Shown here: positions 5,439 to 42,039 of the stretch, piece after piece | Numbering within the stretch: the stretch's first letter is position 1 | Layout of the letters: every line of letters begins with the position of its first letter | NCBI GenBank assembly: GCA_964483625.1 | Contig: CAZABB010000001.1 | Coordinates: 67,222 to 131,221, forward strand | From: an uncultured Planctomycetia bacterium | GTDB taxonomy: Bacteria; Omnitrophota; Gorgyraeia; Duberdicusellales; 4484-171 | DNA: 64,000 nucleotides | Direction of reading: 5' to 3' | Translations under genes and position numbers: made by a program | Notes under the pieces: generated by a model | Databases searched by the model: none | The model's input: only the letters and a program-made list of their open reading frames with translations | Told to the model about the DNA's origin: nothing

Positions 5439-5450
5439 TTCACACCTATT

Positions 5451-6455: not shown

Positions 6456-6477
6456 TTATCACCTCTGGTTGAAACTG

Positions 6478-7485: not shown

Positions 7486-7492
7486 AATGATC

Positions 7493-9485: not shown

Positions 9486-9500
9486 AGACGGATTCTTTCT

Positions 9501-10483: not shown

Positions 10484-10486
10484 ATC

Positions 10487-11527: not shown

Positions 11528-11544
11528 CGGCTATTTTTGTTCGT

Positions 11545-12564: not shown

Positions 12565-12579
12565 TGCATTCTCTTTCGG

Positions 12580-14725: not shown

Positions 14726-14737
14726 TTGTAGACATTT

Positions 14738-15784: not shown

Positions 15785-16865
15785 AAAGCCCCTTTCTATT
15801 TTCTCTTTCGACTACAAACGGATAGTCACCTTCAAAAAAACAATTCAGAAGAAAATGACAATTATCGCCGCATGTCCTAATCTTCTCTCTGGCCCGTTCG
15901 GCTTTCTCCGACACCCAGAGCTTCCGTATGTCGTCCTCGGGATTGCGGATATTGCCCAGCTTCTCCCAACTGTAACACAAAAAGACATCCCCAATGGAAC
16001 TGATGTGCAGCGCCCGGTCAAGATTACACGGCCCTTTTTTGACAAACCGGTCGGGAGCCTCCAGATACTTCTTGTACGCCTCTAACTGCTGGGGAGTATT
16101 GCCGATTAACTGGCCCTCTTTGCGGCGGCGGATGATCTCATCGAGAATTCGATGGACCTTCTCTGTATTTTGGGGCCAGTAAAAACCGAATTCGGGGGTA
16201 CGATACCAATGCCGATCAAATTTTTCTTTTCCCCAATAGGTATTATTCGGCTGCATGGGAACCATATAATAAATGGATTTAAAGCGGGGGTCTTCATTGA
16301 CCCAGGTTCCCAACTCAAGCATGCCATCAACTGTATCGGCCATAATAATGCTGCACATACCGACATGCACGTCCGGCGCATATTTTGCCAGATTGTCTAG
16401 AGCGCGCATCACCCGGGCATGAACCCCTTTGACTCCCCGCCAATGATCATGAACTTTTTCATCCAGACTGTCCAGAGAAAGCACCAGACTGAACAGCCCG
16501 GAATCAGCGATCCGTTGTGCCATCTCTTTATCGATTAAATACCCGTTACTGGCAATGGTCATCTTGAACCCGATATCGGTACAGTAACGGATAAAATCCC
16601 AGAGCCAGTCGACAAGAAGAGCTTCTCCGCCGCCCACATCGATCTCAAACTTCTCATCGACAAGATCGCGTAGCTGCCGCGCCGCCCGCATCCATTCCTG
16701 AAGAGTTGGTTTGGTTTTACCGTAGGTACCTTTATCTTTATGCCATTTATCGCACATCTGACAGCGTAGCATGCAATCATCGGTAATCCCGGGACAGCAG
16801 AATCCCGGTTTCAATATGTTCTTCTCGGCCTGATTGAGCTGACTCTGCATCATATGTTTCTCCAT
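15777..16865 (-). CDS. Radical SAM/SPASM-like protein, short tandem paralog (family A, subgroup)
   Basis: CMLRCQMCDKW, GGGEAL, IASNGYLID, SLDSLDEKVHDHWRG, C-terminal CNLDRA...FLCYSWEKLGN...CGDNCHFLLNCFF. Confidence 0.8.
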   Translation of the reverse strand: MEKHMMQSQLNQAEKNILKPGFCCPGITDDCMLRCQMCDKWHKDKGTYGKTKPTLQEWMRAARQLRDLVDEKFEIDVGGGEALLVDWLWDFIRYCTDIGFKMTIASNGYLIDKEMAQRIADSGLFSLVLSLDSLDEKVHDHWRGVKGVHARVMRALDNLAKYAPDVHVGMCSIIMADTVDGMLELGTWVNEDPRFKSIYYMVPMQPNNTYWGKEKFDRHWYRTPEFGFYWPQNTEKVHRILDEIIRRRKEGQLIGNTPQQLEAYKKYLEAPDRFVKKGPCNLDRALHISSIGDVFLCYSWEKLGNIRNPEDDIRKLWVSEKAERAREKIRTCGDNCHFLLNCFFEGDYPFVVERENRKGLYG

Positions 16866-16867
16866 CG

Positions 16868-17938
16868 TTAAGGTTTAACCGTACTTAATTGAGAATCTAC
16901 CCGAAACGGATAGTCGCCTTCGAAATAGCAATTCAAAAGAAAATGACAGTTTTCCCGACAGTCCCGTATTGCGGCCCTTACGCGGTCGGCTTCGGAAGAA
17001 TACCAGAGCCAGGCCAGATCATCATGTTCGATATTCCCAAGCCGGTCATGCTGGTAACAGATAAAAATATCTCCCACGGCACTCACATGAACAGCCTGAT
17101 CCATATTGCAGGGATTCTTTTTCACGAAGCAGTCGGGATGACGGAAATACGATTTGAATGCTTCCAGTTGACACACCTGGTTCGAGATCTTCAACGGATT
17201 CTGTCTTTTCAGACGTATGATCTCCTCCAGAACCGATGCCGCTTTTTGAGCATCCTTGGGCCAGAGGAATCCGAATTCCTCGGAGCGATACCATGCCTGG
17301 GTAAAAGACGTATTGTTGGGTTGAACAATCACCATGAAATCGATCCAGTCCAACGACTTATTTTTCAATGCCCATGATGTCAGCGGAATAATATCTTCCA
17401 GGTTATACTCGGAAATAACCGTACAAATGCCTTTTTTGGTACGAGGGGCATACCGATCAAGATACTCGATAGCGTCCATCACCCGTTGATAGACCCCTTC
17501 GACGCCGCGTAAGAAATCATGTTTTTTTTCATCCAGTGTATCCAGGGAAAGATTGATAAGATGCAGGCCCGATCTTCCGATACGCCGGGCCAGCTCCTGA
17601 TCGATCAGGTACCCGTTTGAGGGGATATTGACGGTAAATCCCCGGCGGATCGCATAACGGGCAAGTTCCAAGATATCCGGTAAAAGGAATGCCTCACCGC
17701 CGCCGAGATGGAGATACAAGTCCTTCTCGGCAATCGACTCAAGCGATTTCACCGCCCGCTTCCATGCGGCCAAAGAAGCCGGTATGCCGTTTGCCGCAGC
17801 CATATCCGGTTTCCACTTATGGCACATCTTACAGCGCAGCATACATTGATCGGTAACTCCGAAACAACAAAACCGCACGCGGGGGGGAAATTCCCCCGGC
17901 GACCTTTCTTTCTTTTTCCCAAACAGACGTTTTATCAT
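16868..17938 (-). CDS. Radical SAM/SPASM-like protein, short tandem paralog (family A, subgroup)
   Basis: CMLRCKMCHKW, GGGEAF, IPSNGYLID, SLDTLDEKKHDFLRG, C-terminal CNMDQA...FICYQHDRLGN...CRENCHFLLNCYF. Confidence 0.8.
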   Translation of the reverse strand: MIKRLFGKKKERSPGEFPPRVRFCCFGVTDQCMLRCKMCHKWKPDMAAANGIPASLAAWKRAVKSLESIAEKDLYLHLGGGEAFLLPDILELARYAIRRGFTVNIPSNGYLIDQELARRIGRSGLHLINLSLDTLDEKKHDFLRGVEGVYQRVMDAIEYLDRYAPRTKKGICTVISEYNLEDIIPLTSWALKNKSLDWIDFMVIVQPNNTSFTQAWYRSEEFGFLWPKDAQKAASVLEEIIRLKRQNPLKISNQVCQLEAFKSYFRHPDCFVKKNPCNMDQAVHVSAVGDIFICYQHDRLGNIEHDDLAWLWYSSEADRVRAAIRDCRENCHFLLNCYFEGDYPFRVDSQLSTVKP

Positions 17939-17959
17939 CCTCTGACTACAATGGTTTCC

Positions 17960-18106
17960 TTACGAACGGCCGAATTGCTTCCAGTCGATCCCTCGCCGTT
18001 TACATTCCCGCCGCCACTGTATATATTTTACTCCGCGGTAAAAGGCATAAAAAAGCCCGTGCGCCCGACAGTGTTTACGGAATTTCCGCAAATATGTTTC
18101 CACCAT
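17960..18106 (-). CDS. Small basic hypothetical protein (48 aa) in the only sizeable gap inside the rSAM array; candidate precursor peptide or small regulator
   Basis: Minus-strand ATG at 18106 is preceded by a strong SD (AAGGAGGgggaaagATG). Translation: MVETYLRKFRKHCRAHGLFYAFYRGVKYIQWRRECKRRGIDWKQFGRS, stop at 17960-17962. It is below the track's 60-aa cut-off. No homology could be assessed. Confidence 0.35.
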   Translation of the reverse strand: MVETYLRKFRKHCRAHGLFYAFYRGVKYIQWRRECKRRGIDWKQFGRS

Positions 18107-18121
18107 CTTTCCCCCTCCTTC

Positions 18122-19468
18122 TTAGCGTATGCCGGCGTACCCAGCCGGCTGTCTCTCGCATGTATTTTTGATTTCCTTCTCTCCCAGCGGTTTTTCCCGA
18201 TCCCTTTTCCCACGCAGAAATTTCATCGTTTTTGCCAGAGAAACCAGTATTTTCTTCTGCCGGGGAGAAAGCGAAGCAATGCGGCCGTGCATATACCGGT
18301 TATGACCGAGATTATCGCAGCTTTTATAACATCCCATCCTGGCATCCCGATCGTTTCCGATCAGCGAAAAGAATTCATCCGCGGGATTCATATGAAGCGT
18401 TTTTTCCCGAAACTGCCTCTGCCGGGGGCCGTTCCATATCCGGGAGAACTTATCTTGGTGGATATTTCCCACGGGAAAACGGTGGGACTTCAGGCACGAA
18501 TTCACATTGCCGTCGGCCAGGATACGGACAAACACCCATCCGGCATAACAGGGAATTTCGTTAATCACATTGGAATCGTATTGGGCGCATTGAGAATCAC
18601 AGTTGGCAATCCGGCGCACAAAATCTTCAAATCCGAACAGAAAAGATATTTGGTTATTCTTCTCTCCCCAGCGGCGCCGGATCGATTCGCAACGATTCAA
18701 CAAATCTCCGCATTGCCTTTCATCGAGAAGCAACCGGTCGGTTTTGCCGGGAATCGTATCGATAACCGTGAATTCGACCATTTCCGAACCCGTTTGGCAG
18801 GCCAATTCAGCCATGCGTTCAATATCATGGTAATTCTCGGAAAAGATGACATGATATATTTTTACCCGGGGTAATTCGCGTTTGGTCCGATTCAAAAGAT
18901 CCAGCATGTCTTTGATACGATAAAACGTGCTCTTATCTTTATTGGGATGCGTAGCGGAATAAATCTCCGGCGTCCCCGCCCAGATACTCACCGTGAGCGA
19001 ATCAACGCCCAAGCGCACCAGCTCCTTTACTCTGAATTCATCAACGAGAGTAAAGTTCGTATTCACATAGCATTCAAATCCCCGTTTTTTAGTATATGCC
19101 AGGATATCCATAATGTCCGGGTGCATAAACGGTTCTCCGCCGCCGGCATAATATATCTGCCGGGTACCCATACGCGCCAGTTCATCAAGGAGTTTTATCA
19201 CCCGCCGGCGGGGAAGCATCTGCTTTTTTACCGATGGGGAGATCTTCTTTTCTCCCAGAAGCGGCGAGTTACACCAACAGCCGATGCAGTCGTTATTACA
19301 GTCGTTAGTTAAATCGATCTGCACAAAGTCGGGCCCTTTATAGGCATACGTCCCATCAATCACACCCAGAGCGTCAAGATAACAACCGCGCATCTTCCTC
19401 GCTACCGACCGTCCCCCTTCTTTTTTCCAGTGCGATAATACCTTGCTTACTGTCCTTTGATCGATCAT
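18122..19468 (-). CDS. Radical SAM protein (distinct family, 448 aa) with Cys-rich C-terminal region
   Basis: DLTNDCNNDCIGCWCN (C-x3-C-x2-C), YYAGGGEPFMHPD, NTNFTLVD. Further Cys motifs (CDSQCAQY, CYAGW, CLKSH, CYKSCDNLGHN) suggest auxiliary cluster(s). Confidence 0.75.
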   Translation of the reverse strand: MIDQRTVSKVLSHWKKEGGRSVARKMRGCYLDALGVIDGTYAYKGPDFVQIDLTNDCNNDCIGCWCNSPLLGEKKISPSVKKQMLPRRRVIKLLDELARMGTRQIYYAGGGEPFMHPDIMDILAYTKKRGFECYVNTNFTLVDEFRVKELVRLGVDSLTVSIWAGTPEIYSATHPNKDKSTFYRIKDMLDLLNRTKRELPRVKIYHVIFSENYHDIERMAELACQTGSEMVEFTVIDTIPGKTDRLLLDERQCGDLLNRCESIRRRWGEKNNQISFLFGFEDFVRRIANCDSQCAQYDSNVINEIPCYAGWVFVRILADGNVNSCLKSHRFPVGNIHQDKFSRIWNGPRQRQFREKTLHMNPADEFFSLIGNDRDARMGCYKSCDNLGHNRYMHGRIASLSPRQKKILVSLAKTMKFLRGKRDREKPLGEKEIKNTCERQPAGYAGIR

Positions 19469-21669
19469 TTCTTTCTATGAGACTTACGTTTTCGAAAGTC
19501 CTCCTCGACAATCTTCAGGTGTCCGGAGAAAAAGAAACAATCCTGCCGGACCTCTTTTTGATGACCGTTCGTTTTAACTCCCACCATACGTGCTCCCGGA
19601 TATACGGAAGCGTTATTGACATAGGAGGTATATTCATCGGATTTTTTCGTATATTCCAGTAATACCGTAGGTAGCTGGCCGCGCCACCTTTTCCTGCCTC
19701 GTAATCCTACAAACTCACTGCGGGGATTGCGTATTTTTACCTCGGTGAAATCATCAAGACCGGGGAATCCGCCTTCTCCCCAGGAATCCACCCATTGCCG
19801 GTATCGTTCCGAAAGGACAACCCCGATCTTACGTCCGGAAACCGGAAGCGGGAACTGAGTCTTCAGAGAAACCTTCCATTCTATCTGCTTCTCGTCGGGG
19901 ACATTAATTTTCCAAATCTCCTCTACGGGATGAAGGCCGTATTTAGTCTTTAAGATGACGCCGTTACTGCCTTGTCGCTCGAAATCCCAGCAGCCTAAAG
20001 AAGAGTGATGGAATTGACCGTTCTCCAAAGACACTTCGCTGACCAGACCCGCCCCTTGTGTCAATTTCATTCCACCCCAATAGATCTCGATTTCGTTATG
20101 TTCAAAGATGATCTCCAGTCTTCCGACCCTGATCCTCTTTTCCGGAGCAACGACACGCATCTTCCTGCGTTGATCCCACAACCTCTCTTTGGGAAGAATG
20201 ATCAGCCGCCGGAAAAAGAATCTCCCTGTCTTAAACAGAGCCATGAAGACACCGTCTTTTTTTAACGTCGACCAAATCAACTGAAGATAATAGTACACCC
20301 GATTGCCTTTCTTTGCCCGGTGCTGCCGGATATATTTCTTGACCCATCGGCCATAGGCATACCGTACCGCTTCGGTCAGATCTTTACTCGTTAATTCATC
20401 CAGATGGATGACACTCCGGTGATTTCCGTCATACTCCGACCAGCGCCGTGAACGTAACGCGCCTTTACGATCCATTTCCTTGTAGAAATCCGTACCCGGG
20501 AAAGGAGTCGCGATGGAAAACTGGACCGTTTCCGGATCCAACCGCAAGGCGAAATCGGTAGTATCCTGGATCGTCTGTCTGGTTTCTCCGGGCAGCCCGA
20601 AGGTAAAGGTAAGATGCGTTTTGATATCCAGCATCTTGGTAAACTTGATAATCTCTTCAGTACGTTTGATGTTCATATTCTTATCTATACCGTCGAGCAG
20701 CGCTTGCGACGACGATTCAACTCCGTATTTTACGGCATAGAGACCGGTTTCTTTCATATTTTGTAAGATCTCTTCATCCATAAGATCTGCTCTCGCCATG
20801 ATTGCCCATGGCACATCTAATTTTCGTTTCTTTATTTCGGCACAGAAGGCAAGCATGCGGTCTTTTCCGATATTGAACGTATCGTCATCGAAATAAATCG
20901 ACTTAAATTTCATCTCCTTGGTCAAGAACTCCATCTCATCAACAACATCGACGATATCCCTTGTGCGGTAATTATGTCCATGATACATAACCTGCGGCCA
21001 GAGACAGAACTTACAACGGAACGGACAACCGCGGGAAGCAAGCATCTGGGCTGAAGGCAAAGGAATGTCCCCCGGGCTGTCATTATAGCGGTACATCGGG
21101 AGACCCTCCCGCAACGGCCACGGCAAAGCGTTTAAATCCGTCAACGAACGTAACGGTGTACGATGAATTCCTTCCCGATTCCGATAGATCAATCCCGCCA
21201 CAGAAGCCAAATCCCGGCCGGCACGAAGGGCTTTCACCAGTTCAAGCAGAGTAAATTCATATTCCCCCACAAGCACGTAACGAACAAAGGGATATTGTTT
21301 CAGAAACGATTCACTGCGGATATTTACATCCGGGCCACACAAAACAAGATGAATACGCGTTCCCAGACGGCTTAACAATCGCAGATCATGCTCGAGAGTA
21401 ACGGTGGAAACCTCACATACCAGAAGATCCGGCTTCAATGTGCGCATTGAGTGCAGGAACGACCGGTAAGAAATCCTCTGAGCGATCGCATCGATTAAGG
21501 TCACCTTAAAATCATGCTTCTTAAGCAATGCCGCCGCATAGGCCAGAAAAAACGGAAAGGGAAGGTAGTCGGTCTCGGTGGGCCCTTTCAAATGCGGCCA
21601 GCGTGAACCGGCTCGCACTCCCTGCTTGCCGGATTGCCTCCACGGTAGATTTGCTAAAACGATCTTCAT
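19465..21669 (-). CDS. B12-binding domain/radical SAM (class B) protein with ~300-aa C-terminal extension carrying one copy of the W-rich module
   Basis: N-terminal MKIVLANLPW...FLAYAAALLKKHDFKVTLIDA (cobalamin-binding Rossmann-like), then CPFRCKFCLWPQV radical SAM cluster. C-terminal IEIYWGGMKLTQGAGL...WKINVPDEKQIEWKVSL...SERYRQWVDSWGEGGFP. Confidence 0.8.
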   Translation of the reverse strand: MKIVLANLPWRQSGKQGVRAGSRWPHLKGPTETDYLPFPFFLAYAAALLKKHDFKVTLIDAIAQRISYRSFLHSMRTLKPDLLVCEVSTVTLEHDLRLLSRLGTRIHLVLCGPDVNIRSESFLKQYPFVRYVLVGEYEFTLLELVKALRAGRDLASVAGLIYRNREGIHRTPLRSLTDLNALPWPLREGLPMYRYNDSPGDIPLPSAQMLASRGCPFRCKFCLWPQVMYHGHNYRTRDIVDVVDEMEFLTKEMKFKSIYFDDDTFNIGKDRMLAFCAEIKKRKLDVPWAIMARADLMDEEILQNMKETGLYAVKYGVESSSQALLDGIDKNMNIKRTEEIIKFTKMLDIKTHLTFTFGLPGETRQTIQDTTDFALRLDPETVQFSIATPFPGTDFYKEMDRKGALRSRRWSEYDGNHRSVIHLDELTSKDLTEAVRYAYGRWVKKYIRQHRAKKGNRVYYYLQLIWSTLKKDGVFMALFKTGRFFFRRLIILPKERLWDQRRKMRVVAPEKRIRVGRLEIIFEHNEIEIYWGGMKLTQGAGLVSEVSLENGQFHHSSLGCWDFERQGSNGVILKTKYGLHPVEEIWKINVPDEKQIEWKVSLKTQFPLPVSGRKIGVVLSERYRQWVDSWGEGGFPGLDDFTEVKIRNPRSEFVGLRGRKRWRGQLPTVLLEYTKKSDEYTSYVNNASVYPGARMVGVKTNGHQKEVRQDCFFFSGHLKIVEEDFRKRKSHRKK

Positions 21670-24600
21670 GTCCTCATGAATTTCTCTAAACCATATTCCT
21701 TCATATTTTCATGGATACGGAGAATAACCTGATGCGTATCGCAATTATTACAGAACTCGTCATAGAGCCTAACTCCGTTTTTCAGCACGACATTTTTATT
21801 GTGCGTAAGATCTTTTGCCTGGATCCTCAGCTGGTTATATTCGGGAGAATTCCAGATCTCTTCCAATGATCTTCCGTTGATCGAATCAATCACGCGCAGA
21901 TGACAGCACATACTTACTTCTCCCTTAGCCAGCACCAGACAGAAAAACCATCCTACCGGACACCCCAGTTTTAAAAAGGCGTTTTCCGACCAATATCCCG
22001 TACGGGAATCGTAATGTTTCAACTGAAACGATAAATTGTCTTCGATCTTTCTTTCCTGTTCATTGAGATAACAACTCACCTTTTTTATCGAATCTCTCAT
22101 TTGTTCGATGTGTTGAGACTGCAACTTAAGATTTTTGATGTTTTGATCTATACGGGCAAGATAAAACCGTATCTTATCCGCGCCTACAGCGACATCTGTC
22201 CTGGCCATCTCTTCCAATTCATGATAGTTGAGCGCATGGATCACATGAGTCATCTGTACCAAAGGCATCCGTTTCCCCAAAGCATTACGTAGAGAAATAA
22301 GGTTGGAAAGATTTTTCGTAATGACACCAAAGATATCTTTTGACTGCTTTGAATTAATCAAAGCATAGGTCTGCGCCGTCCCGGCGGGAAGACTGCAGAA
22401 AATTTCATTAATCTCAAGCTCAAGCAAAATCTTGGCTTTTTTTTCGTCAAGCAAGATCCCATTGGTAAAAAATAACACTTTCAATCCTTTGTTCCGGGCG
22501 TAACGAACCATATCGATAAAACGGGTATCCAGAAGCGGCTCACCGTCACCCTGAATGATAATCTCATCACAAAGAAGTTCAGCCGCATCGTCGATAATGC
22601 GCCGGTAGAGATTGTCGTCCATCTTTAACTCTTCATCCTGCCGGGACGAGACACGCTTTGGATTATGGATCCAGCAATGGATGCAATCGGTATTGCACGA
22701 ATGGAACGTATCCAGAACAATGGTCTGGGGACCGATAAAGGCGTGCTCGCATATCACTCCCAGAAGGCGCAATAGATCTTTTTCATTGTGTTGATCGGCC
22801 GAAGTAGAAACCAGCGAAAGCAACTCCAGCAGATCGTGGTCTTTTAAAAAAAGCTCGATACCCGTATGTTGTATACGCGTATTCAATTCGCGCAGGTATT
22901 CAATAAAATACGCCAGAAGATTGCGCACCGGGAAGAGCGACAGAGAGAGTGAACGCAGATCGATACGCTGATTCATCAGCGTCGAGGCATATTGGACAAT
23001 CTCAGCCAGCCGGAAAAAATTAAACTTGGTGACGCCGATGCGGAGATTGGTATCTCCGGGAGATATATTTTTGATCCTTTCCTGGATGCGGAGAAACTCC
23101 TCAGACTGATCACCCGCTTTATCGTGCAACACAGCGTTATCACCGTAAAGATATATCGCATTTTTCTTGTTTTTATCGTCCGGCCGGGTTTCGACAAACA
23201 CGTTTTCTTTTTTCAGACGCGCGGCAAGTTCTTCTATCCTTTCTGCGCACGCACGCTTGTCCGAGAGACGTTGAAATTCCTCCTGTCGTCTTTTTCTCTC
23301 CTTTTCTCTACGCTGTCTGAGCCGGGCAACAACTGCCTGCAACCGTTCTCTCCGAGGATAAAACCGAATAATACCTCTGAGCGTCACGATCGTACCCGCC
23401 TGCGGGGATCCCATTGTTTCTTCTCCCGACGCCTCCAAGATACATGCCGAAGAATCGATATCGCCATGATATACCGACAAAGAGGAGAATTTTGTGTGCT
23501 CATTTTGAAACGTAAAACCGGGGATGTTTTCTTTTTGTGGCAATACGCCGATAAAGGCGGGCGGAGCATCGCCGGGCTGATTCATGGGGACCCAATGGGT
23601 ATCGAACCGTGCCGGGAAAGAACCGGAATCCGGACCGGCGACCCATTCACGATATCCTTTGGAAACAAACAAAGAAGCCTTAACGTAATCTATCAGCAAA
23701 GGCTGACGGCATTCTATGTCGACATTCCAGATAAGAGCATCCTCTTGAGAGAAAGTCAAATACCATTTCTGTACGAGGGGCAGATGATGTAATCTAAAAT
23801 AAATGATCATTTCTTTCGCCGATGGTCGTTCTACCGTTACGGTCGAATCCCTCGAGCTGTACCATCGCCCTCCCGTCAGGCAGACCACTCGGAAACCGTC
23901 TCCTTTGGTAATTTCATGTTCACCGTGATACATATATATCTGATTGGCAGGGTCAAGATAAAGCCTGTAAGCCCCCCGGGACAGGGTACATCGCTGTTCC
24001 TCTTCTTTCTTCTCTCTTAGAATACGCTGCTGTTCCTGTCTCTCCCGATCTGAAATATGTTTTTCCAGCAAACTCCGGCTGGGATCGATCTGAAATTCTC
24101 CCGTGCCGCAAAGATATTCACCCGGAAGGAAAGATTCGTCTTTCCGGCAAAAACGGAATTCAAAGATGCGGCAGGATAAAGTGAGATCGCTGGTATAAAG
24201 ATGGGAAACGGCCGGGTGAGGATAAAACGAATGGAAAAGCAGCGTGGGATATTCCTCCTGCGAAGAAAGCGCGCCAAACTGATCTGAAGTATCCCGGGAT
24301 AACTCGACCGGTGATACATACGTGTCGGAAAACGAAGGGAAACATCCCCGGCGGCGGGAATCGCTCCAGCTATCATAAAACCGAGAGACATAAAACTGAA
24401 CATGCACCTCATCCAGACGCAATGGCACGCTGGTATTCACATACATTTCCCATCGTATGTTCTTATCCGGCGTGATGTTCATTTTCCACCTTTGCGTAAA
24501 AGAAGATTTAGCAGCCTGCGAAACGATCTCCATTTCGACGGGAGAAATTTTACGTATGCCCAGCCGGCCATCACAAAAATGATGCCATTGAGCTTCGGAT

Positions 24601-24836
24601 AACACTCTGGTGCTCAAACCATGATATTTTGTAATCTCGGTCTCTCCCCAAAATATCCTCAAACGGTTATCCTCGTCAAACCATACCCGGCATTCACTAT
24701 CTCCGATGGTTCTTTCAGTAATACGTTCCTGCGCTTCCAACATTTGGAACTTTTTGATTCGTTTTCTAAACATTTCTCTTAGTGCGCGCATAACACCCGA
24801 TTTTTCTTCGGCACACATCGGAAGAAAAACGGACAA
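21666..24836 (-). CDS. Large (1056 aa) multidomain radical SAM/SPASM protein: two N-terminal W-rich modules, middle domain, then C-terminal rSAM
   Basis: C-terminal CNTDCIHCWIHNP, GDGEPLLD, FFTNGILLD, CCHLRVIDS...CNNCDTHQ (as in ORF 771..2471). N-terminal LRIFWGETEITKYHGL...WKMNITPDKNIRWEMYV...SRFYDSWSDSRRRGCFP and IYMYHGEHEITKGDGF...WYLTFSQEDALIWNVDI...SKGYREWVAGPDSGSFP. Confidence 0.8.
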   Translation of the reverse strand: MSVFLPMCAEEKSGVMRALREMFRKRIKKFQMLEAQERITERTIGDSECRVWFDEDNRLRIFWGETEITKYHGLSTRVLSEAQWHHFCDGRLGIRKISPVEMEIVSQAAKSSFTQRWKMNITPDKNIRWEMYVNTSVPLRLDEVHVQFYVSRFYDSWSDSRRRGCFPSFSDTYVSPVELSRDTSDQFGALSSQEEYPTLLFHSFYPHPAVSHLYTSDLTLSCRIFEFRFCRKDESFLPGEYLCGTGEFQIDPSRSLLEKHISDRERQEQQRILREKKEEEQRCTLSRGAYRLYLDPANQIYMYHGEHEITKGDGFRVVCLTGGRWYSSRDSTVTVERPSAKEMIIYFRLHHLPLVQKWYLTFSQEDALIWNVDIECRQPLLIDYVKASLFVSKGYREWVAGPDSGSFPARFDTHWVPMNQPGDAPPAFIGVLPQKENIPGFTFQNEHTKFSSLSVYHGDIDSSACILEASGEETMGSPQAGTIVTLRGIIRFYPRRERLQAVVARLRQRREKERKRRQEEFQRLSDKRACAERIEELAARLKKENVFVETRPDDKNKKNAIYLYGDNAVLHDKAGDQSEEFLRIQERIKNISPGDTNLRIGVTKFNFFRLAEIVQYASTLMNQRIDLRSLSLSLFPVRNLLAYFIEYLRELNTRIQHTGIELFLKDHDLLELLSLVSTSADQHNEKDLLRLLGVICEHAFIGPQTIVLDTFHSCNTDCIHCWIHNPKRVSSRQDEELKMDDNLYRRIIDDAAELLCDEIIIQGDGEPLLDTRFIDMVRYARNKGLKVLFFTNGILLDEKKAKILLELEINEIFCSLPAGTAQTYALINSKQSKDIFGVITKNLSNLISLRNALGKRMPLVQMTHVIHALNYHELEEMARTDVAVGADKIRFYLARIDQNIKNLKLQSQHIEQMRDSIKKVSCYLNEQERKIEDNLSFQLKHYDSRTGYWSENAFLKLGCPVGWFFCLVLAKGEVSMCCHLRVIDSINGRSLEEIWNSPEYNQLRIQAKDLTHNKNVVLKNGVRLYDEFCNNCDTHQVILRIHENMKEYGLEKFMRT

Positions 24837-24851
24837 TTTTCTCCCGGCCGC

Positions 24852-25904
24852 CTAGGCGTTCCTTTCCGAATCTCCGTCGAACGAACAATTAAAACGAAAA
24901 TGACAAAATTCGCGGCATTCCCGTATGTTCTGCCGCACGCAATGAGCCTTTTGGGAAAACCACATCTTTTCTATACTTTCTTCCCTCACGTTTCCCAGGG
25001 ACTCTTTTACAAAACAAAGGTAGACTTCACCCGAAGGATTAATATTCAAATCTCGATCACCAATCGTACAGGGAAGGCGAGGAACCCCTTCCCGCGGATC
25101 TGTAAAATAGGCCCGATAGGCACGCAATTGCTCAACCGAATTAGCAATTTTCGCGTTGGACGCTTTCGCCGCCAGCACAGCCTGGATGTTCCTTTCCGAT
25201 TCGCGGGAATCATCAGGCCAGAGCACACCGTATTCTTCACTTTTACGCCAGGACTCATCCTGCCCCGAGCCAAAAGGGCACACAATTGCCTGAAAATAAA
25301 TATAATCGATCCGGTCATCCCGCCTTACCCATTCCGTCAGAGGCAAAAGCTCTGTGATATTCTGCTTCATAATCACCGTCTGAATATTAATCCCCACGCC
25401 GGGAGCGTAACGGCGAAGATAATCGATCCCCCGCATCACGCGCATAAACGCCCCTTGAACTCCCCGCAACCTATCGTACACCTCCTCCTTCAGACTGTCT
25501 AAAGAAATACAGACTCTCCACACACCCGCATCGCTTATTCTTTTGGCGAGATCTCTATCGATAAGATAGGCATTCGTGTCAATAGACACTTTATATCCAC
25601 GCCGGGAAGTCACATAGGCCATATCCAATATATCCTGCTTTAAAAAAGGCTCGCCGCCGGAAAATATAATGTCGTGCTGAGGATTATAAAAGTTTCTCAG
25701 GCTCTCAACAACCCTGCTCCACTGGATAACCGTAAGTTCGTCCAAAAAACTCGTTTCCTCCCGCCAGATACGGCACATGCGGCAGCGAAACATACACCGT
25801 AACGTTGCCACAAAACAACAGTAGGATGGCAGTAAACCCGATGGGGATCCCTCCGGACATAAAAACCTATCTGTTTTCTTGTTTGTATCCATAGGCGTCG
25901 ACAT
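24852..25904 (-). CDS. Radical SAM/SPASM-like protein, family A paralog (first rSAM of the operon)
   Basis: CMFRCRMCRIW, SGGEPF, IDTNAYLID, SLDSLKEEVYDRLRG, C-terminal CTIGDR...YLCFVKESLGN...CREFCHFRFNCSF. Confidence 0.8.
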   Translation of the reverse strand: MSTPMDTNKKTDRFLCPEGSPSGLLPSYCCFVATLRCMFRCRMCRIWREETSFLDELTVIQWSRVVESLRNFYNPQHDIIFSGGEPFLKQDILDMAYVTSRRGYKVSIDTNAYLIDRDLAKRISDAGVWRVCISLDSLKEEVYDRLRGVQGAFMRVMRGIDYLRRYAPGVGINIQTVIMKQNITELLPLTEWVRRDDRIDYIYFQAIVCPFGSGQDESWRKSEEYGVLWPDDSRESERNIQAVLAAKASNAKIANSVEQLRAYRAYFTDPREGVPRLPCTIGDRDLNINPSGEVYLCFVKESLGNVREESIEKMWFSQKAHCVRQNIRECREFCHFRFNCSFDGDSERNA

Positions 25905-28723
25905 TAGGGAGCAATGTTAATACATCCCTCAATACATCTTTCTCTGCCAGACAGCTCGCGAGGAAAGAGCGGTGATTGACATTGAAGGATCCGGGCTTGA
26001 AATAAATCGTCGGCGTTTTCGACAAGTGTCTCATATCCTCCATCATGGGAATAACAATGCAAGGTAACCGCAGGAATATATTGTCGTTCCAGAAGACCGG
26101 ATCTCATTTTGACTTTTTTCACTCCAATACGTGCCGATGCGTCTCCGCTCCATAATTGATCCCACCTCTTACCGTCGTGATGATTGAATCGATCAGGGAA
26201 TCGCTTATATGTTCCCCCCGGAGCAAACCATTCTTTATATTTATCCGAGAGCATAATATTCACCTGTTCTCTTTCTACTTCCGCTGTCCCTTCTCTCGTA
26301 TCCCATACCATACTTCTGACTTTCCACAAAATAGAATGTTCATCAACCACATGAATTTCCCATATCTGGCGGAGAGAAAGCCTCGGCCAATATCCTTGAG
26401 CCTCTATCCTGTTGTCGTTTTCGGATCTCACCTGCCACCGGGCATGAGACGAATCATTCCAAAACCCTCTTATAAAAAACGATGTGTAGAAACCGAGCCC
26501 TTTGGTACACTCTATACCGTTCCAGAAAATCTTTCCTTTCCCTGAAGCAAGGGCAAAACGTAATCTACCCACCTCTGCCGATACATCCTGCTTCGCTTGT
26601 TCGGGATTATGGGAAGAAATGTTTTCTTTCCGAAAAACTGGTGTACCGGCGCGGGAACTCACGTGTAATTTCCCTCGGAAAAAGCGATATCCACCGACCT
26701 GAGCATCAGGAAAATCGATGCCGATATACTGTAATTTTACCTTAGGTTCGGTTCCCCGATACGTATAAATGTAAGCGGCACATAAGGCGGCATCATCGCA
26801 GAGAAACGTCACGTTCGGCATCCGGAGATATTTCCCGGCTTCAGTTCCTCCTACTCCAATAAACGTATCCACATATTTATCTAATATCACCGAGCTCCGA
26901 TTCCCTCCCGTCAGATTTTTAAAATCGCCGCGCTGAGTCTCGCTAAACCATTCTCGATATTCATGACTGAGGATTACTTCCGCGATCTCCTCTTTTATCG
27001 ACAGCGATGTCTCTGATTGCATTGTTACTTCCCAGATAAGATCCTCCTCACTTTCCAGATAGAAACGCCATACCTGAGCAACTCCGGGAAGATTACGCCA
27101 GGAAACAGTAATACGCAACGTTGTCTCATCCTCTTTTTGCGCGTTCCATATAACGTGCTCTGGACTCCCTTCGATATCGTAGTGAATGCCATCGGAACGG
27201 AATACCGTATTAAAACCTGCCCCGGCAGTACACAAGATGTCCTGCCAGTAAAGCCGCAAGAGGAAACCGCTCCACACAAGGCAGAGTGGTCCTTTTTTTA
27301 TTGATAAAAAATCCTGATTGGTTTTCCGAGCCCGAAGGTAACGATCTAATTTTACCCGTTCTCCCTGAGAAAAAACTGAAATATTACCTTTGAAAATAGT
27401 CTTCTGTTCCAAAAAATGATCTTGAGGAAAATATTCATACAGCACCCCACGCCCTTTGAGTTCGGAACCCCGATTACAGATATGACACATCATCTCTGGT
27501 CCATCATCCACTCTTTCCCAGAGAATCGCCAGCGGCACTTTACCAACCTTCTCTTCGGCACTGAATCCCACGGCCTCATCGCGCACGTTCTCGGTCCGAA
27601 CGTCTTCCCATTCGACCGGATGCGGAGAAATCATCGGAAACGCTCCTTCTCCGGTATTGGTCATCCACCGTTTATATTCGTCGACAAATATAGCGGTAAT
27701 CTCGATCTTCTCTATCGGTGTCGGCGCGGCACATTGGATAATGACCTCCCAGAGAAACCTGTTTTCGGAGGATACTGTTATTTTCCATATTTGCACCAGG
27801 GGTAAATCCGGCCACTTCCCCGTCACGACTACTGTCGAGGAGTCCTCCGGAGACGGCTGTACTTCCCAGCGCGCCGTCATCGAAAGGTACTGACGTCCTT
27901 TGCTTATCAGCTTAACATACCCTGCCGGATAAGGAGTAAGCGTACGATCGTGCCATCTCAAGATAAGTCTTCCGTTATTCACCACAATGCCAAGATCGCC
28001 ATCCTGCCGACAAACGATACCCCCCTTATCCCCTATGGTCTCCGTATAATAATTACACACGCTCTCTATCGGACCATCTTTAATCAGCCGACCTTCTCTT
28101 AAGAAAATACCGCGGGCACATAATCTTTTAACCATTGCCAGATCATGCATTATAAAAAGAATCGTCTTACCCATCTCCTTTAACTGAAAAAGTTTATCGA
28201 TACATTTACGTTGCGCATAAAGATCTCCCACCATAAACGCATCGTCAACGAGTAAGATATCCGGATCCACGTGAATCGCGATAGCAAAAGCCAGACGCAG
28301 GGACATACCCTGAGAATAATTTCTGACCGACGCGTTGATGAACCGTCCCACCTCGGCAAAGCGAATAATATCCTCATACCGGACATCTATCTGTGACTTG
28401 GTCAGTCCGAATAGCGATGCGGTAAGATATACATTCTCTTTGCCCGTCAACTCTGACTGAAATCCCGCACCGATCTCCATGAGCGTTGAGACCGACCCTT
28501 TAACATCAATCTTACCTTTATCCGGCTTAAACATGCCGGAAATAAGTTTAAGCAGCGTGGTCTTGCCGGCGCCGTTCTCACCGATAATACCAACTGCCTC
28601 ACCCCGGTGCATATCGAAACTCACATCTCTCAGAGCCCAGAACATTTCCTTACTCACCTTGCCGGATTCTTTATACTCGACCCTGTATCCCAACCACACA
28701 TTTTTGAGAGAAATAACTTCCAT
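25904..28723 (-). CDS. ABC transporter ATP-binding protein, Wzt/TagH/KpsT-like, with ~700-aa C-terminal extension containing three W-rich repeat modules
   Basis: Walker A GENGAGKTTLLKLISG, signature YSQGMSLRLAFA, Walker B ILLVDDAF, H-loop IMHDL. The extension has three repeats (LILRWHDRTLT...WKITVSSENRFLWEVII...EYKRWMTNTGEGAFP; LRLYWQDILCTAGAGF...WRFYLESEEDLIWEVTM...EYREWFSETQRGDF; KIFWNGIECTKGLGF...WEIHVVDEHSILWKVRS...KYKEWFAPGGTYKRFP). Confidence 0.85.
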   Translation of the reverse strand: MEVISLKNVWLGYRVEYKESGKVSKEMFWALRDVSFDMHRGEAVGIIGENGAGKTTLLKLISGMFKPDKGKIDVKGSVSTLMEIGAGFQSELTGKENVYLTASLFGLTKSQIDVRYEDIIRFAEVGRFINASVRNYSQGMSLRLAFAIAIHVDPDILLVDDAFMVGDLYAQRKCIDKLFQLKEMGKTILFIMHDLAMVKRLCARGIFLREGRLIKDGPIESVCNYYTETIGDKGGIVCRQDGDLGIVVNNGRLILRWHDRTLTPYPAGYVKLISKGRQYLSMTARWEVQPSPEDSSTVVVTGKWPDLPLVQIWKITVSSENRFLWEVIIQCAAPTPIEKIEITAIFVDEYKRWMTNTGEGAFPMISPHPVEWEDVRTENVRDEAVGFSAEEKVGKVPLAILWERVDDGPEMMCHICNRGSELKGRGVLYEYFPQDHFLEQKTIFKGNISVFSQGERVKLDRYLRARKTNQDFLSIKKGPLCLVWSGFLLRLYWQDILCTAGAGFNTVFRSDGIHYDIEGSPEHVIWNAQKEDETTLRITVSWRNLPGVAQVWRFYLESEEDLIWEVTMQSETSLSIKEEIAEVILSHEYREWFSETQRGDFKNLTGGNRSSVILDKYVDTFIGVGGTEAGKYLRMPNVTFLCDDAALCAAYIYTYRGTEPKVKLQYIGIDFPDAQVGGYRFFRGKLHVSSRAGTPVFRKENISSHNPEQAKQDVSAEVGRLRFALASGKGKIFWNGIECTKGLGFYTSFFIRGFWNDSSHARWQVRSENDNRIEAQGYWPRLSLRQIWEIHVVDEHSILWKVRSMVWDTREGTAEVEREQVNIMLSDKYKEWFAPGGTYKRFPDRFNHHDGKRWDQLWSGDASARIGVKKVKMRSGLLERQYIPAVTLHCYSHDGGYETLVENADDLFQARILQCQSPLFPRELSGRERCIEGCINIAP

Positions 28724-28733: not shown

Positions 28734-29507
28734 TTACAGGTATTTCACAAGATCTTTCTCTTTGCGAATAAATACGGTCGCTCCCACGGTAAAACTCAGA
28801 ACGGCAAAGCCAAAAGCGAGAAGCCACATGAAAAAGGACCCCGGCTGAGAATGAAAAAGTAAGGATCGGAAAAGGACGATATAGCACGTACCCGGGTTTG
28901 CAACAAGGAGCCAGCGATAGGCCGAAGGGACCATCTCCAGAGGATAAAAAATAGGGGTCATCCAGAACCAGAACATAATACCTACGTTCAACATCTGGGC
29001 GAGGTCTCGGAAATATACGTCAATCACACTGAAAAGAAGAGATACCCCTAAAGCAAACATCAGGTAACATAAAAGAAGGAGCGGGAGATAAAATACACAT
29101 TTTACGATGGCGGGCGAAGCTAAAATGAATACCGGTAAAAGCACGATGAATCCGAAGAAAAAATTCATGAAATGCGCCATGACCACCGAAAGCGGAATGA
29201 TTTCCCGGGGAAGAACGAACTGCTTGATCAAATTGCTGTTTTGCCGCAGCGAGCCGGTGCTTTCACATATCGAATTTACAAAGAAAAACCAGGGTAAAAG
29301 CGCGCTGAGGACAAAAAGAGGAAACCTCTCGATCTGCATCTTGATGATGTGAGTGAACACAAAGGCGACAACCATCATAATTAACAAAGGGGTAAGCAAT
29401 GCCCAGGAAATACCCAGAAAAGAACCACAGTACTTATCACTAAGGTTCTTAATGATCATGCTTTTAATAATATCCCGGCGCGCTATGAGTGTTTTAATAC
29501 GATTCAT
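28734..29507 (-). CDS. ABC-2 type transporter permease (Wzm/TagG-like)
   Basis: 257 aa, six predicted TM helices, typical ABC-2 organisation. It lies immediately downstream of and is co-oriented with the Wzt-like ATPase (10-nt gap). Confidence 0.75.
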   Translation of the reverse strand: MNRIKTLIARRDIIKSMIIKNLSDKYCGSFLGISWALLTPLLIMMVVAFVFTHIIKMQIERFPLFVLSALLPWFFFVNSICESTGSLRQNSNLIKQFVLPREIIPLSVVMAHFMNFFFGFIVLLPVFILASPAIVKCVFYLPLLLLCYLMFALGVSLLFSVIDVYFRDLAQMLNVGIMFWFWMTPIFYPLEMVPSAYRWLLVANPGTCYIVLFRSLLFHSQPGSFFMWLLAFGFAVLSFTVGATVFIRKEKDLVKYL

Positions 29508-30864
29508 AGATAGCTTCTCGTTCGGATATTTCTTGAGCCAGGGCTCGGCTCTCAGAGATCACATCCTCCATCGACATATACCGCCAGCTCCCGTATCGTC
29601 CGCAGCAGCTGATATTATATTCTCTCAAGAAAGAAACGATCTTCTCCCGGGCCTGTCGGTAATTCATGTCATACAGAGGGTACCCGTACCGGATATCGTG
29701 GGTGTTTGAGACAACCACGCGGTCTTTTTCTTTCAATATCCCCACTCGTTTTAAATCGTCCATCACCTGCCGTACAATCGTACGTTTATTAATCGGCTTA
29801 TGACGAGAATAGGAAACTTCAACGTACATCGAAGACGCACCGGGCGGAACAAGCGAAGGAGAAAAATTGTGAAAGAACCCTGCCCGGAAGAAACAAATAT
29901 CTCTTGCCGGAAAATAAATCCAGTGGCAATGAGGCTGCATCGTGGGTTCAATGCCAATATTAATATTGAAAATCGAAACCCACCGGAGCTGACGGCCATA
30001 TCTTTTCATATCGCGGGGAACGTGACGGATCATTTTGAGCAGTTCCGGCAAAGGTAGGGTAGAAGCAAGATGATTGAATTTCATCATCCTCCCATCTTTA
30101 AACCGAACCGTCTTCTTGATGAGGTCTATTTCAGTCACCTCGCTCTTTACGGAGACGGAAGGAAGGGATCGGGAAAAAGTTTTGACTAATGTTTCTATGC
30201 CTCCCTGCCGAGGATACCAAAAAGACGCATTATATCCTAAATTCCGCCTGCTTTCATCAACGGTTCCCTCTACCACTTGGCGATACGTAGGAATAATCAC
30301 TAAGCCTTCGGCCCATTCATGAGAAAGATCTTCCAGCTTTACGTTCCAGAACTTCTCATTATATGGGCGCATGAAGTATTCGGTAACACCCTCACCAAAG
30401 TTTTTATGACTCCACTCGAAGAAATTACGGGGGATCAGATACTTAATCCCATTCGTATGAACCCGGATAAAATCAGTAAGACATTTTTTTATCACCGGGT
30501 GAGGCAATCCGTGGAGGTTAACCTGAAACGGATAGCGATGGATCCTGTCAAACGAATAGATGTAAGCATTCCGCTTGTGTTCGATTAGATTATCACCCAG
30601 AAGCTCTCTGATAAGGGCGAACGTATTCTTGTGCTTAAAATGAAGTAAATGACCACAGCAATCGAAGGTAAATCCACCAACGCGTTTCGATCGGCACAGG
30701 CCTCCTAGACGAGATTCTTTCTCAAATAGCTCATAGGAAACTCTTTTGTTCCGGAGGAAATACGCCAGGGAAACTCCGGCAAGGCCTCCGCCTAAAATAG
30801 TAACATCTGGATGCGCGTTAAAATCTGCTCTTCCCATGAGTTTTTTCTCTTTAAGAACCGGCAA
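29494..30864 (-). CDS. NAD(P)/FAD-dependent oxidoreductase, UDP-galactopyranose mutase-like (Glf/amine-oxidase superfamily)
   Basis: N-terminal dinucleotide-binding motif VTILGGGLAGVSLAYFL...EKESRLGG, FTFDCCGHLL motif. Size and motifs are consistent with the UGM-like flavoenzyme family. The specific substrate is not determinable. Confidence 0.55.
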   Translation of the reverse strand: MPVLKEKKLMGRADFNAHPDVTILGGGLAGVSLAYFLRNKRVSYELFEKESRLGGLCRSKRVGGFTFDCCGHLLHFKHKNTFALIRELLGDNLIEHKRNAYIYSFDRIHRYPFQVNLHGLPHPVIKKCLTDFIRVHTNGIKYLIPRNFFEWSHKNFGEGVTEYFMRPYNEKFWNVKLEDLSHEWAEGLVIIPTYRQVVEGTVDESRRNLGYNASFWYPRQGGIETLVKTFSRSLPSVSVKSEVTEIDLIKKTVRFKDGRMMKFNHLASTLPLPELLKMIRHVPRDMKRYGRQLRWVSIFNINIGIEPTMQPHCHWIYFPARDICFFRAGFFHNFSPSLVPPGASSMYVEVSYSRHKPINKRTIVRQVMDDLKRVGILKEKDRVVVSNTHDIRYGYPLYDMNYRQAREKIVSFLREYNISCCGRYGSWRYMSMEDVISESRALAQEISEREAIYESY

Positions 30865-39379: not shown

Positions 39380-39381
39380 AT

Positions 39382-39741: not shown

Positions 39742-39807
39742 TCTCTCCTCCTCACCTAGTCTCTGGTTTTCCGTCTATTCGCTAACCGCTATACGCTCGC
39801 CGCTATT

Positions 39808-41960: not shown

Positions 41961-42039
41961 ACCCTTTCTATTCTTTTCGAGAAGAGATGTTTATGTTTAT
42001 CGAGTATTGATTCCATTGTAACGGAGGGGATTTGACTTC

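Follow-up and report, generated by a model that had tools for sequence, protein, structure and literature searches.

A candidate glycan-recognition module shared by a Wzt-like exporter ATPase and two radical SAM enzymes of an uncultured Omnitrophota bacterium

Gene content of the locus

The window analyzed here (64,000 nucleotides of contig CAZABB010000001.1) contains an ABC exporter gene pair, an operon with 19 radical SAM (rSAM) genes, and a divergent group of glycan-assembly genes. The genes are tightly packed, with spacings of -4 to +15 nt. The features are listed in Table 1, in which the positions and the minus-strand orientation of the three module-bearing open reading frames (ORFs) were confirmed.

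Table 1. Features of the exporter, rSAM, and glycan-assembly region (window positions).
Feature	Position	Strand	Evidence
Divergent glycan-assembly genes: GT4, GT2, GT4, GT4, WecA/MraY-family polyprenyl-phosphate sugar-1-phosphate transferase	31789..36942	+	Pfam
Amine-oxidase-like flavoprotein, directly upstream of Wzm	29494..30864	-	Pfam Amino_oxidase, NAD_binding_8
Wzm-like ABC-2 permease	28734..29507	-	Pfam ABC2_membrane 5.6e-13
Wzt-like ABC ATPase, 939 aa	25904..28723	-	
NBD of Wzt-like ATPase, aa 1-232	28028..28723	-	Pfam ABC_tran 5.9e-22
Module copy 1 on Wzt, aa 240-457	27353..28006	-	150.0 bits
Module copy 2 on Wzt, aa 474-690	26654..27304	-	136.1 bits
Module copy 3 on Wzt, aa 718-938, C-terminal	25910..26572	-	179.2 bits
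Small rSAM/SPASM, 350 aa, without module, between Wzt and large rSAM	24852..25904	-	Pfam Radical_SAM, SPASM
Large rSAM/SPASM, 1056 aa	21666..24836	-	
Module copy 1 on large rSAM, aa 43-263	24048..24710	-	134.6 bits
Module copy 2 on large rSAM, aa 284-504	23325..23987	-	141.3 bits
Conserved middle region of large rSAM, aa 525-695	22752..23264	-	No Pfam match
rSAM/SPASM core of large rSAM, aa 696-1056	21666..22751	-	Pfam Radical_SAM 2.3e-12, SPASM 9.1e-10
B12-rSAM, 734 aa	19465..21669	-	
B12-binding and radical SAM core of B12-rSAM, aa 1-470	20260..21669	-	Pfam B12-binding, Radical_SAM
Module on B12-rSAM, aa 513-723, C-terminal	19501..20133	-	142.2 bits
Downstream array, 16 further rSAM genes	771..19468	-	Pfam

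A TagH/Wzt-like NBD, an adjoining ABC-2 permease, and the glycan-assembly setting identify the transporter as a Wzm/Wzt-type polysaccharide exporter. The Pfam match of the NBD covers aa 31-163, and in NCBIfam the NBD scores highest with TagH (208.9 bits) and galactan Wzt/RfbE (151.5 bits). The permease, encoded 10 nt upstream of the ATPase gene, is closest to the galactan Wzm/RfbD permease, with KpsM also among its best matches. All of these scores lie below the equivalog cut-offs, and both proteins are therefore assigned at the family level only. The modules begin at aa 240 and directly follow the NBD in a Wzt paired with a Wzm, at the position of the canonical carbohydrate-binding domain (CBD).

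The divergent genes match Glycos_transf_1, Glycos_transf_2, and Glycos_transf_4 in Pfam, and the WecA-like transferase reaches 70.5 bits with the NCBIfam WecA model, below its cut-off. The flavoprotein resembles the PRK07208-like 'hypothetical' model and scores only 33.9 bits with UDP-Galp mutase. A similar amine-oxidase-like gene also precedes Wzm in locus L002 and in 12 of 33 metagenome loci, making it a conserved synteny partner.

The gene of the small rSAM/SPASM enzyme (CxxxCxxC at aa 37) overlaps the Wzt stop codon by 1 nt. The 1056-aa protein is an rSAM/SPASM enzyme by its Radical_SAM (aa 711-878) and SPASM (aa 959-1032) domains and a CNTDCIHC motif at aa 714; its core reaches no curated NCBIfam cut-off (best match 109 bits, cut-off 380). 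Each of its module copies is followed by a linker, ER/K-rich and 85% charged after copy 1 (aa 264-283), charged and helical after copy 2 (aa 505-560). The conserved middle region is present in all BIG-type homologues, where it again precedes the rSAM/SPASM core (phmmer E 1e-17 to 1e-22). The 734-aa protein is a class B rSAM enzyme with an N-terminal B12-binding domain (27.1 bits, below the Pfam gathering score of 32.1), a Radical_SAM domain (61.7 bits), and CPFRCKFC at aa 215. Its nearest NCBIfam model is the hopanoid-associated B12-rSAM HpnJ, an identity that was rejected because its 247.7 bits fall short of the cut-off of 577.6. No transmembrane segment was found in any of the three module-bearing proteins.

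The downstream array is comprised of 13 small rSAM/SPASM paralogues, a 448-aa rSAM/SPASM protein, a TPR-rSAM fusion, and a 566-aa rSAM protein, with paralogue identities of 29-47%. None of these 16 genes contains a module detectable by the profile described below.

A repeated module of about 220 residues

A profile HMM was built from 54 family members from outside the window, with no window sequence in the profile, and was run against all six-frame ORFs. It recovers six copies and no more, each scoring 134-179 bits (i-E 1e-41 to 1e-55), whereas the next-best ORF scores 4.7 bits; the repeats are highly significant in this profile comparison. The Wzt-like ATPase accounts for three copies, the 1056-aa rSAM/SPASM enzyme for two, and the B12-rSAM for the remaining one, the very number and placement proposed in the first-pass annotation. 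In addition, pairwise BLASTP matches among the non-catalytic regions of the three ORFs score 44-65 bits, with E of 1e-8 to 1e-16 in a small database.

The size and character of the unit had to be revised. The repeat was originally described as a W-rich module of about 125 aa, but that stretch runs from the first conserved Trp to a G-x-F-P motif and makes up the N-terminal ~55-60% of the domain. The true unit is ~215-225 aa (HMM positions 2-228), and the median start-to-start spacing is 228 aa (n = 284 tandem pairs). The overall enrichment in Trp is modest (3.0% versus 1.39% in the other long ORFs of the window), with five Trp positions conserved at 69-91% across 203 modules. Besides these Trp residues, the same 203 modules conserve Tyr, Phe, Thr, Ser, Gln, Asn, Asp, and Arg; they contain no conserved His column and no conserved acid pair, the only acidic columns being E at 60% and D at 64%.

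The window copies are old. They share 20-30% identity with one another, and each finds its best matches among same-position modules in other proteins of the same class. Wzt copy 1 is closest to position-1 modules of other proteins with an NBD and three modules, copy 2 to position-2 modules, and copy 3, the most canonical, to last-position modules (36-42% identity).

Predicted fold and database relatives

At the sequence level, the suggested novelty of the module is supported: no Pfam, NCBIfam, or PDB sequence match was obtained, database names of family members are generic, and no well-known unrelated domain accounts for the repeat. The Wzt_C profile does not match the full ATPase at E<=0.1 or the excised modules at E<=10, and it is also absent from seven further family members.

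A structure model of Wzt module copy 1 (pLDDT 93.7) predicts a galactose-mutarotase-like beta-supersandwich of ~220 aa, with similarity extending across the whole domain. The module is predicted to be all-beta, in line with the beta-rich character expected earlier; the ~150-aa Wzt jelly-roll was not recovered. Structural neighbours share 5-14% identity with the module, so that homology to any sugar-binding family is unproven. The supersandwich fold does not imply sugar binding in every case, as the structural hits also include the YidC P1 domain, PBCV-1 capsid protein P19, and a chloroplast NDH subunit.

Distribution, fusions, and gene neighbourhoods

A threshold of E<=1e-3 gives a family of 589 protein clusters, and E<=1e-30 gives 206; individual proteins carry 1-9 copies. 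Among the top 150, the partner domains are the Wzt NBD (~85), BIG-type rSAM/SPASM, B12-rSAM (module on either side), GT-C/PMT_2, and sulfatase, all of which are glycan-handling. The occurrence on GT-C glycosyltransferases and a sulfatase indicates a general targeting module with no specificity for rSAM enzymes or Wzt. The sulfatase fusion, located in a GT/CysDN/sulfatase cluster, carries an N-terminal signal/anchor, from which its modules are probably extracytoplasmic; the ligand would then occur on each side of the membrane, which fits an exported glycan.

Co-occurrence with rSAM enzymes was evident in the 33 metagenome loci located via the module: rSAM genes were present in 25, module-bearing Wzt in 22, module-fused rSAM enzymes in 12, and both kinds of module-bearing protein in 8. 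The recurrent gene order is WecA, amine-oxidase-like gene, Wzm, Wzt with a variable number of modules, and B12-rSAM with or without a module. On two contigs, the NBD, the modules (five in P0012, two in P0136), and an rSAM/SPASM domain are fused in one ORF next to Wzm. On the other hand, module-bearing Wzt is accompanied by module-less rSAM enzymes or by none in loci L009, L010, L014, L016, L018, L033-L035, and L040, the last being a full 20-kb locus with a three-module Wzt and no rSAM gene. GT-C and sulfatase modules occur without rSAM neighbours in L019, L020, and L005.

Interpretation

We interpret the module as an unannotated, autonomous supersandwich domain family that serves as a non-catalytic glycan-recognition module common to the exporter and its tailoring enzymes, with a probability of roughly 0.58. 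The shared module would probably allow these proteins to hold the same sugar chain. This agrees with the original proposal of a common substrate-recognition domain, glycan being the putative ligand. The further suggestion that modification is coupled to export gains support from the single-ORF fusions on two independent contigs.

In the proposed mechanism, a three-module, position-specialized tandem array would replace the canonical jelly-roll CBD on Wzt and recruit a cytoplasmic polyprenol-linked polysaccharide, made by the neighbouring WecA-like transferase and the GT2/GT4 enzymes, to the Wzm/Wzt channel. Modules on the B12-rSAM and the large rSAM/SPASM enzyme would tether these enzymes to the same polymer or keep them beside the exporter, and radical tailoring may act on the finished or growing chain shortly before export. 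SPASM enzymes classically modify peptides, proteins, or cofactors, which counts against their action on a glycan.

The modules could instead be protein-protein docking or oligomerization domains that join Wzt and the rSAM enzymes in a cytoplasmic complex without binding glycan. We consider this rather unlikely. It would fit the presence of one module on exporter and enzymes, the fused proteins, the non-carbohydrate structural roles of other supersandwich domains, and the ER/K-rich spacer helices of the large rSAM enzyme. However, the module-bearing Wzt often lacks a module-bearing rSAM partner, the modules of the signal-anchored sulfatase and the GT-C enzymes lie away from the cytoplasmic NBD, and on Wzt the module sits where a known ligand-binding domain sits.

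A catalytic role on the polymer, for example mutarotase/epimerase-like or lyase/hydrolase-like, is very improbable. Galactose mutarotases (GalM) need a conserved His and a Glu/Asp pair, neither of which is conserved here; membership in the aldose 1-epimerase/galactose mutarotase family was rejected on the lack of a Pfam or NCBIfam match and the non-conservation of the catalytic His/His/Asp/Glu. None of the Pfam models for epimerases or glycoside hydrolases matches the modules, and tandem arrays of 2-9 copies on unrelated catalytic domains are typical of binding modules and not of enzymes. That the modules are themselves protein substrates, cross-linked or otherwise modified by the rSAM/SPASM enzymes, is hardly credible despite the classical preference of SPASM enzymes for peptides and proteins, the many rSAM genes, and the conserved Trp and Tyr positions, since the modules are large folded domains unlike leader-core peptides, occur on GT-C proteins and sulfatases without rSAM neighbours, and accompany a transporter and genes of glycan type.

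Under the glycan-recognition reading, the fold, the domain contexts, and the missing catalytic residues point to a candidate CAZy-type carbohydrate-binding module. A more speculative and on balance doubtful extension is that the Wzt array acts as a multi-site checkpoint, in which each module would read a different rSAM-installed mark along the lipid-linked polysaccharide and only fully tailored chains would be exported. The rSAM, GT-C, and sulfatase enzymes that bear modules would travel on the same polymer as a radical tailoring assembly line, which some organisms would have fused into a single polypeptide. Omnitrophota and related uncultivated bacteria would then possess an undescribed type of pathway, the products of which would be heavily C-modified glycans.

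Significance and comparison with known systems

To our knowledge, the jelly-roll CBD is the only domain type for which it is understood how O-antigen-type ABC exporters recognize their substrates. The present family, in which glycan recognition is predicted, would be a second, unrelated, multi-copy solution, and it covers hundreds of unannotated protein clusters from uncultivated bacteria. The shared module and the exporter-rSAM fusions offer a handle on the coordination between export and the post-assembly tailoring of lipid-linked polysaccharides, and on the role of the very large arrays of rSAM genes in Omnitrophota. If the rSAM enzymes act on glycan, their products would be unusual radical-modified polysaccharides. 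The module would in that case be a useful marker for finding these clusters in genomes, and a candidate for a new family of carbohydrate-binding modules.

The galactose-mutarotase-like fold predicted for the module is that of domains in glycoside hydrolases, polysaccharide lyases, glycan phosphorylases, and aldose 1-epimerases, but their sequence similarity to the module is undetectable and the mutarotase catalytic residues are missing here. They also carry it as a single domain within a hydrolase, lyase, or epimerase, in contrast to the tandem arrays on an ABC ATPase or rSAM enzyme. An analogy may be drawn with the RRE, a ~90-aa winged helix that binds the leader peptide and is common to several RiPP tailoring enzymes, including rSAM/SPASM enzymes: one small recognition domain, N- or C-terminal, on different enzymes of a cluster that engage one substrate.

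The canonical Wzt CBD is a strand-swapped dimer and binds the cap at the non-reducing end of the glycan. As exemplified by E. coli O9a, R. terrigena, and A. aeolicus (Pfam Wzt_C), it is likewise all-beta and fused C-terminally to the NBD, but it is a single ~150-aa jelly-roll instead of three ~220-aa modules of predicted supersandwich fold. In the description given in PMC9445017, this C-terminal domain is expected to recruit the lipid-linked glycan to the transporter. In E. coli O9a, the terminator/capping enzyme WbdD and the exporter Wzt read the same chain end. Chain modification is there functionally coupled to export in an ABC-transporter-dependent pathway (PMC9445017). No rSAM enzymes belong to that system as described, and its coupling runs through a chemical cap, whereas a shared protein domain would provide it here.

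Six copies of the module in the window

The first-pass annotation had described a W-rich module of ~125 aa, with three copies on the Wzt-like ABC ATPase (Wzt), two on the 1056-aa radical SAM (rSAM)/SPASM enzyme, and one on the B12-binding rSAM enzyme (B12-rSAM). All three open reading frames (ORFs) were recovered on the minus strand with unchanged coordinates (see table), and none of the proteins has a transmembrane segment. Outside the catalytic domains neither Pfam nor NCBIfam assigns anything, which leaves ~700 (Wzt), ~260 (B12-rSAM), and ~700 (1056-aa enzyme) residues without annotation. These regions match each other in BLASTP with 44-65 bits and reveal a ~240-aa period in the Wzt tail; cutting at this period yields six segments alignable over ~200 columns, in which T, W, W, Y, W, F, and P are invariant. 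An HMM built from 54 family members outside the window, run against all six-frame stop-to-stop window ORFs, detects exactly six domains, each spanning HMM positions ~2-228, and the best ORF after them scores 4.7 bits. The proposed copy number and placement were thus right, the unit being ~220 aa rather than ~125 aa; Trp enrichment is modest (3.0% in the modules versus 1.39% in other window proteins). A seventh copy in the 566-aa rSAM protein, whose ~220 N-terminal residues match neither Pfam nor the module, or in other rSAM proteins was rejected, as the HMM gave no match.

Identity among the window modules is only 20-30%, whereas each finds its best matches, at 27-42%, among modules with its own ordinal position in other proteins of its class. 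Judged from these identities, the array on Wzt is ancient and position-specialised. Given such low identities (20-30%) and copies that are orthologous by position, recent repeats and low complexity were rejected as explanations.

The start codon of the 1056-aa enzyme is uncertain: the ORF list uses TTG at 24836, and in databases the protein starts further in, at ATGs giving 1050 and 1025 aa; this leaves the modules unchanged. Each of its modules is followed by a highly charged ER/K-type helical linker, and homologues have longer versions, ~60-90 aa made up of EEALRKEEQERKRQ-like repeats, a pattern suggestive of stiff spacers that differ in length.

Features of the window and of related loci (L numbers); module scores are from the HMM built outside the window
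Feature	Position (nt)	Strand	Region (aa)	Remarks
Wzt-like ABC ATPase	25904-28723	-	31-163 (ABC_tran)	939 aa
Wzt module 1			240-457	150 bits
Wzt module 2			474-690	136 bits
Wzt module 3			718-938	179 bits
rSAM/SPASM enzyme	21666-24836	-	711-1032 (Radical_SAM, SPASM)	1056 aa
rSAM/SPASM module 1			43-263	135 bits
Linker after module 1	23988-24047		264-283	85% E/K/R/Q/D
rSAM/SPASM module 2			284-504	141 bits
Linker after module 2	23157-23324		505-560	62% E/K/R/Q/D
B12-rSAM enzyme	19465-21669	-	40-374 (B12-binding, Radical_SAM)	734 aa
B12-rSAM module			513-723	142 bits
rSAM gene array	771-25904	-		19 genes in 25 kb
Small rSAM/SPASM paralogues	24852-25904, 18122-19468, 8481-9485			maturase check
Paralogue ORF	9501-10253	-		250 aa, without CxxxCxxC
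CNVRCKMC-encoding stretch	within 10254-10487			gap just upstream of 9501-10253
rSAM-TPR protein	3417-5438	-		673 aa
566-aa rSAM protein	771-2471	-		
Amine-oxidase-like flavoprotein	29494-30864	-		PRK07208-like "hypothetical"; directly upstream of Wzm
IS200/REP-associated tyrosine transposase-like (IS200/RAYT-like) gene	30851-31549	-		cluster edge, flavoprotein to divergent GT genes
Pyrimidine/arginine-precursor genes	37798-54634	-		with fpg, pabB-like fusion
Module-only ORF	L014 4959-5747			complete gene, 256 aa
Giant multi-rSAM polypeptides	L010 22339-22979 onwards; L007 4893-9215, 14111-18100			
rSAM-TPR protein	L012 19803-22325			module-containing cluster
Y1_Tnp gene	L010/L011 9263-9976			between Wzm and Wzt

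The sequence family

When 1.84 billion representative proteins were searched exhaustively with HMMER, the module family came to 589 clusters at E<=1e-3, of which 478 remained at E<=1e-10 and 206 at E<=1e-30. Family proteins carry 1-9 copies, with a median spacing of 228 aa between successive module starts, and bear generic names ("ABC transporter ATP-binding protein", "radical SAM protein", "hypothetical protein"). Nearly all named source organisms are Candidatus Omnitrophota, the exceptions in the labels being two genome loci from Planctomycetes-class MAGs and one Patescibacteria protein. The closest named homologues suggest that the window, too, stems from Omnitrophota. Pfam at E<=10 on the excised modules gave only sub-threshold noise (DUF3145, DUF4838, Synapsin_C), and PDB sequence searches gave only noise with one profile (A1; yktB, E 0.095) and nothing with a deeper one (A2). 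Genome scans gave no relatives when seeded with the tail from the window and 3 genome loci when seeded with a further module alignment (A4). Full-text literature searches aimed at the module or its context turned up no description of it.

Gene neighbourhoods

From the ABC-2 permease gene (Wzm) to the 448-aa rSAM gene, gaps between genes are -4 to +15 nt. Downstream of the B12-rSAM gene lie 16 more rSAM genes, giving a co-directional array of 19, of which 14 encode ~340-aa rSAM/SPASM paralogues (pairwise identity 29-47%, median 35.5%); no rSAM gene scanned reached a curated NCBIfam cut-off. Most related loci have comparable arrays. For the three small paralogues checked, a role as anaerobic sulfatase maturases was rejected, no such model being among the best 25 NCBIfam matches listed. 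One paralogue looks frameshifted or interrupted, since its CNVRCKMC-encoding stretch lies outside the called ORF, and it looks like a pseudogene or an assembly error. Another array member joins a radical SAM domain to a long C-terminal TPR array, an architecture that recurs in another module-containing cluster.

The upstream, divergent side comprises the flavoprotein and IS200/RAYT-like genes, followed by GT4, GT2, GT4, and GT4 genes and a WecA/MraY-family transferase gene. The flavoprotein is a conserved synteny partner, found in one further locus (L002) and in 12 of 33 metagenome loci; by score it is not a UDP-galactopyranose mutase. An unrelated metagenome locus likewise has a transposase gene, there separating Wzm from Wzt. 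The flanking housekeeping genes (pyrF, pyrD with its electron-transfer subunit, carA, carB, and a dihydroorotase-like gene) indicate that the cluster is chromosomal.

In the 14 loci reached via individual proteins and genome scans, rSAM genes follow every module-bearing Wzt. Co-occurrence of the module with rSAM and Wzt was also seen in a metagenome scan seeded on the module alone, which returned 33 loci: rSAM ORFs are present in 25 (median 2, maximum 8) and module-bearing Wzt in 22, the latter together with rSAM genes within the fetched stretch in 17. An rSAM-module fusion, usually a B12-rSAM with N-terminal module right after Wzt, occurs in 12 loci, and both fused forms in 8. The eight loci without rSAM comprise five short contigs ending near Wzt, two loci of GT-C-module proteins, and one full 20-kb locus (L040). 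The window's order, WecA-like/amine-oxidase-like/Wzm/module-bearing Wzt/rSAM, is recurrent.

It is unlikely that the modules serve purely in protein docking: module-bearing Wzt is often paired in the metagenome loci with rSAM proteins lacking the module, which argues that the module is not merely half of a Wzt-rSAM docking pair.

Architectures and fusions

Among the top 150 family proteins, ~85 consist of a Wzt nucleotide-binding domain (NBD) followed by 2-7 modules, ~9 of 1-4 modules, a conserved middle region, and an rSAM/SPASM core, and ~6 of a B12-rSAM with modules on either side. The proteins whose long N-terminus was unassigned proved to be GT-C/PMT_2 membrane glycosyltransferases, which carry 2-3 modules at the C-terminus, plus one sulfatase with two modules. 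The signal/anchor at the N-terminus of this sulfatase, and its cluster of glycosyltransferases, CysD/CysN-like genes, and other sulfatases, probably place the module also outside the cytoplasm. NBD, modules, middle region, and rSAM/SPASM are united in a single ORF in P0012 (1856 aa) and P0136 (1217 aa), each of which adjoins a Wzm gene; their metagenome contigs are independent. These fusions indicate that exporter and rSAM enzyme may act in one complex.

Module-only ORFs lie directly downstream of Wzt in five loci (L014, L022, L028, L031, and L045); some of those outside L014 are probably N-termini of module-B12-rSAM proteins cut at contig ends. Related clusters also encode giant multi-rSAM polypeptides, among them a 1781-aa product with three Radical_SAM matches and ORFs with 3-4 tandem rSAM cores.

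Predicted fold and conserved residues

A first AlphaFold model from six sequences, of moderate confidence (pLDDT 66.6), was superseded by a 60-sequence model, a predicted galactose-mutarotase-like beta-supersandwich. Its structural matches include the GH174 endo-1,3-fucanase 8jd7_B (score 17.2, 211 residues), the alpha-galactosaminidase 9awt_A (17.2), and the putative aldose 1-epimerase 3ty1_A (17.0, 221 residues, 3.0 A), followed at 13-16 by GH38, GH97, GH36, GH2, GH15, GH63, and GH94 enzymes, PL families, OpgG, and cyclic beta-1,2-glucan synthase. The matches also include some proteins unconnected with carbohydrates (YidC P1, PBCV-1 P19, and an NDH subunit), so sugar binding cannot be concluded from the fold alone.

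The alignment of 203 modules shows conservation of T (94%), S (86%), five W (69-91%), Q (80%), Y (90%), F (96%), P (95%), N (81%), D (64%), and R (87%). The same alignment contains neither a conserved His nor an acid pair, and the mutarotase catalytic set is therefore absent; that the modules are catalytic is improbable. That they are protein substrates of the rSAM enzymes is more improbable still.

Interpretation and comparison with the canonical Wzt domain

The best-supported reading, to which we assign a probability of roughly 0.58, is that the modules form a new family that recognises glycans and has no catalytic role. The analysis demonstrates the sequence family, a predicted fold, the architectures and fusions, and the synteny; for the module ligand, the rSAM substrate, and physical coupling, we infer a scheme in which the Wzt modules would take over from the jelly-roll carbohydrate-binding domain (CBD) and recruit a cytoplasmic lipid-linked polysaccharide, and modules on rSAM, GT-C, and sulfatase enzymes would tether each enzyme to that same polymer. 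The original observation is confirmed with corrected boundaries, and its interpretation as shared substrate recognition is supported. Both the fold and the concept of a substrate-binding domain on Wzt are already known. What appears to be undescribed is the sequence family itself, the tandem and position-specialised arrangement on Wzt, the occurrence of one module on rSAM, GT-C, and sulfatase enzymes alike, and the exporter-rSAM fusions.

In characterised Wzt proteins, the CBD is one jelly-roll fused to the NBD C-terminus, which forms a strand-swapped dimer, binds the non-reducing-end cap, and recruits the lipid-linked glycan (PMC9445017). The module array occupies the same place at the NBD C-terminus but falls outside the Wzt CBD family by sequence and by predicted fold. 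No family member tested has Wzt_C alongside the modules, which, at the level of domain content, makes the array a replacement of the Wzt_C-type CBD rather than an addition to it.
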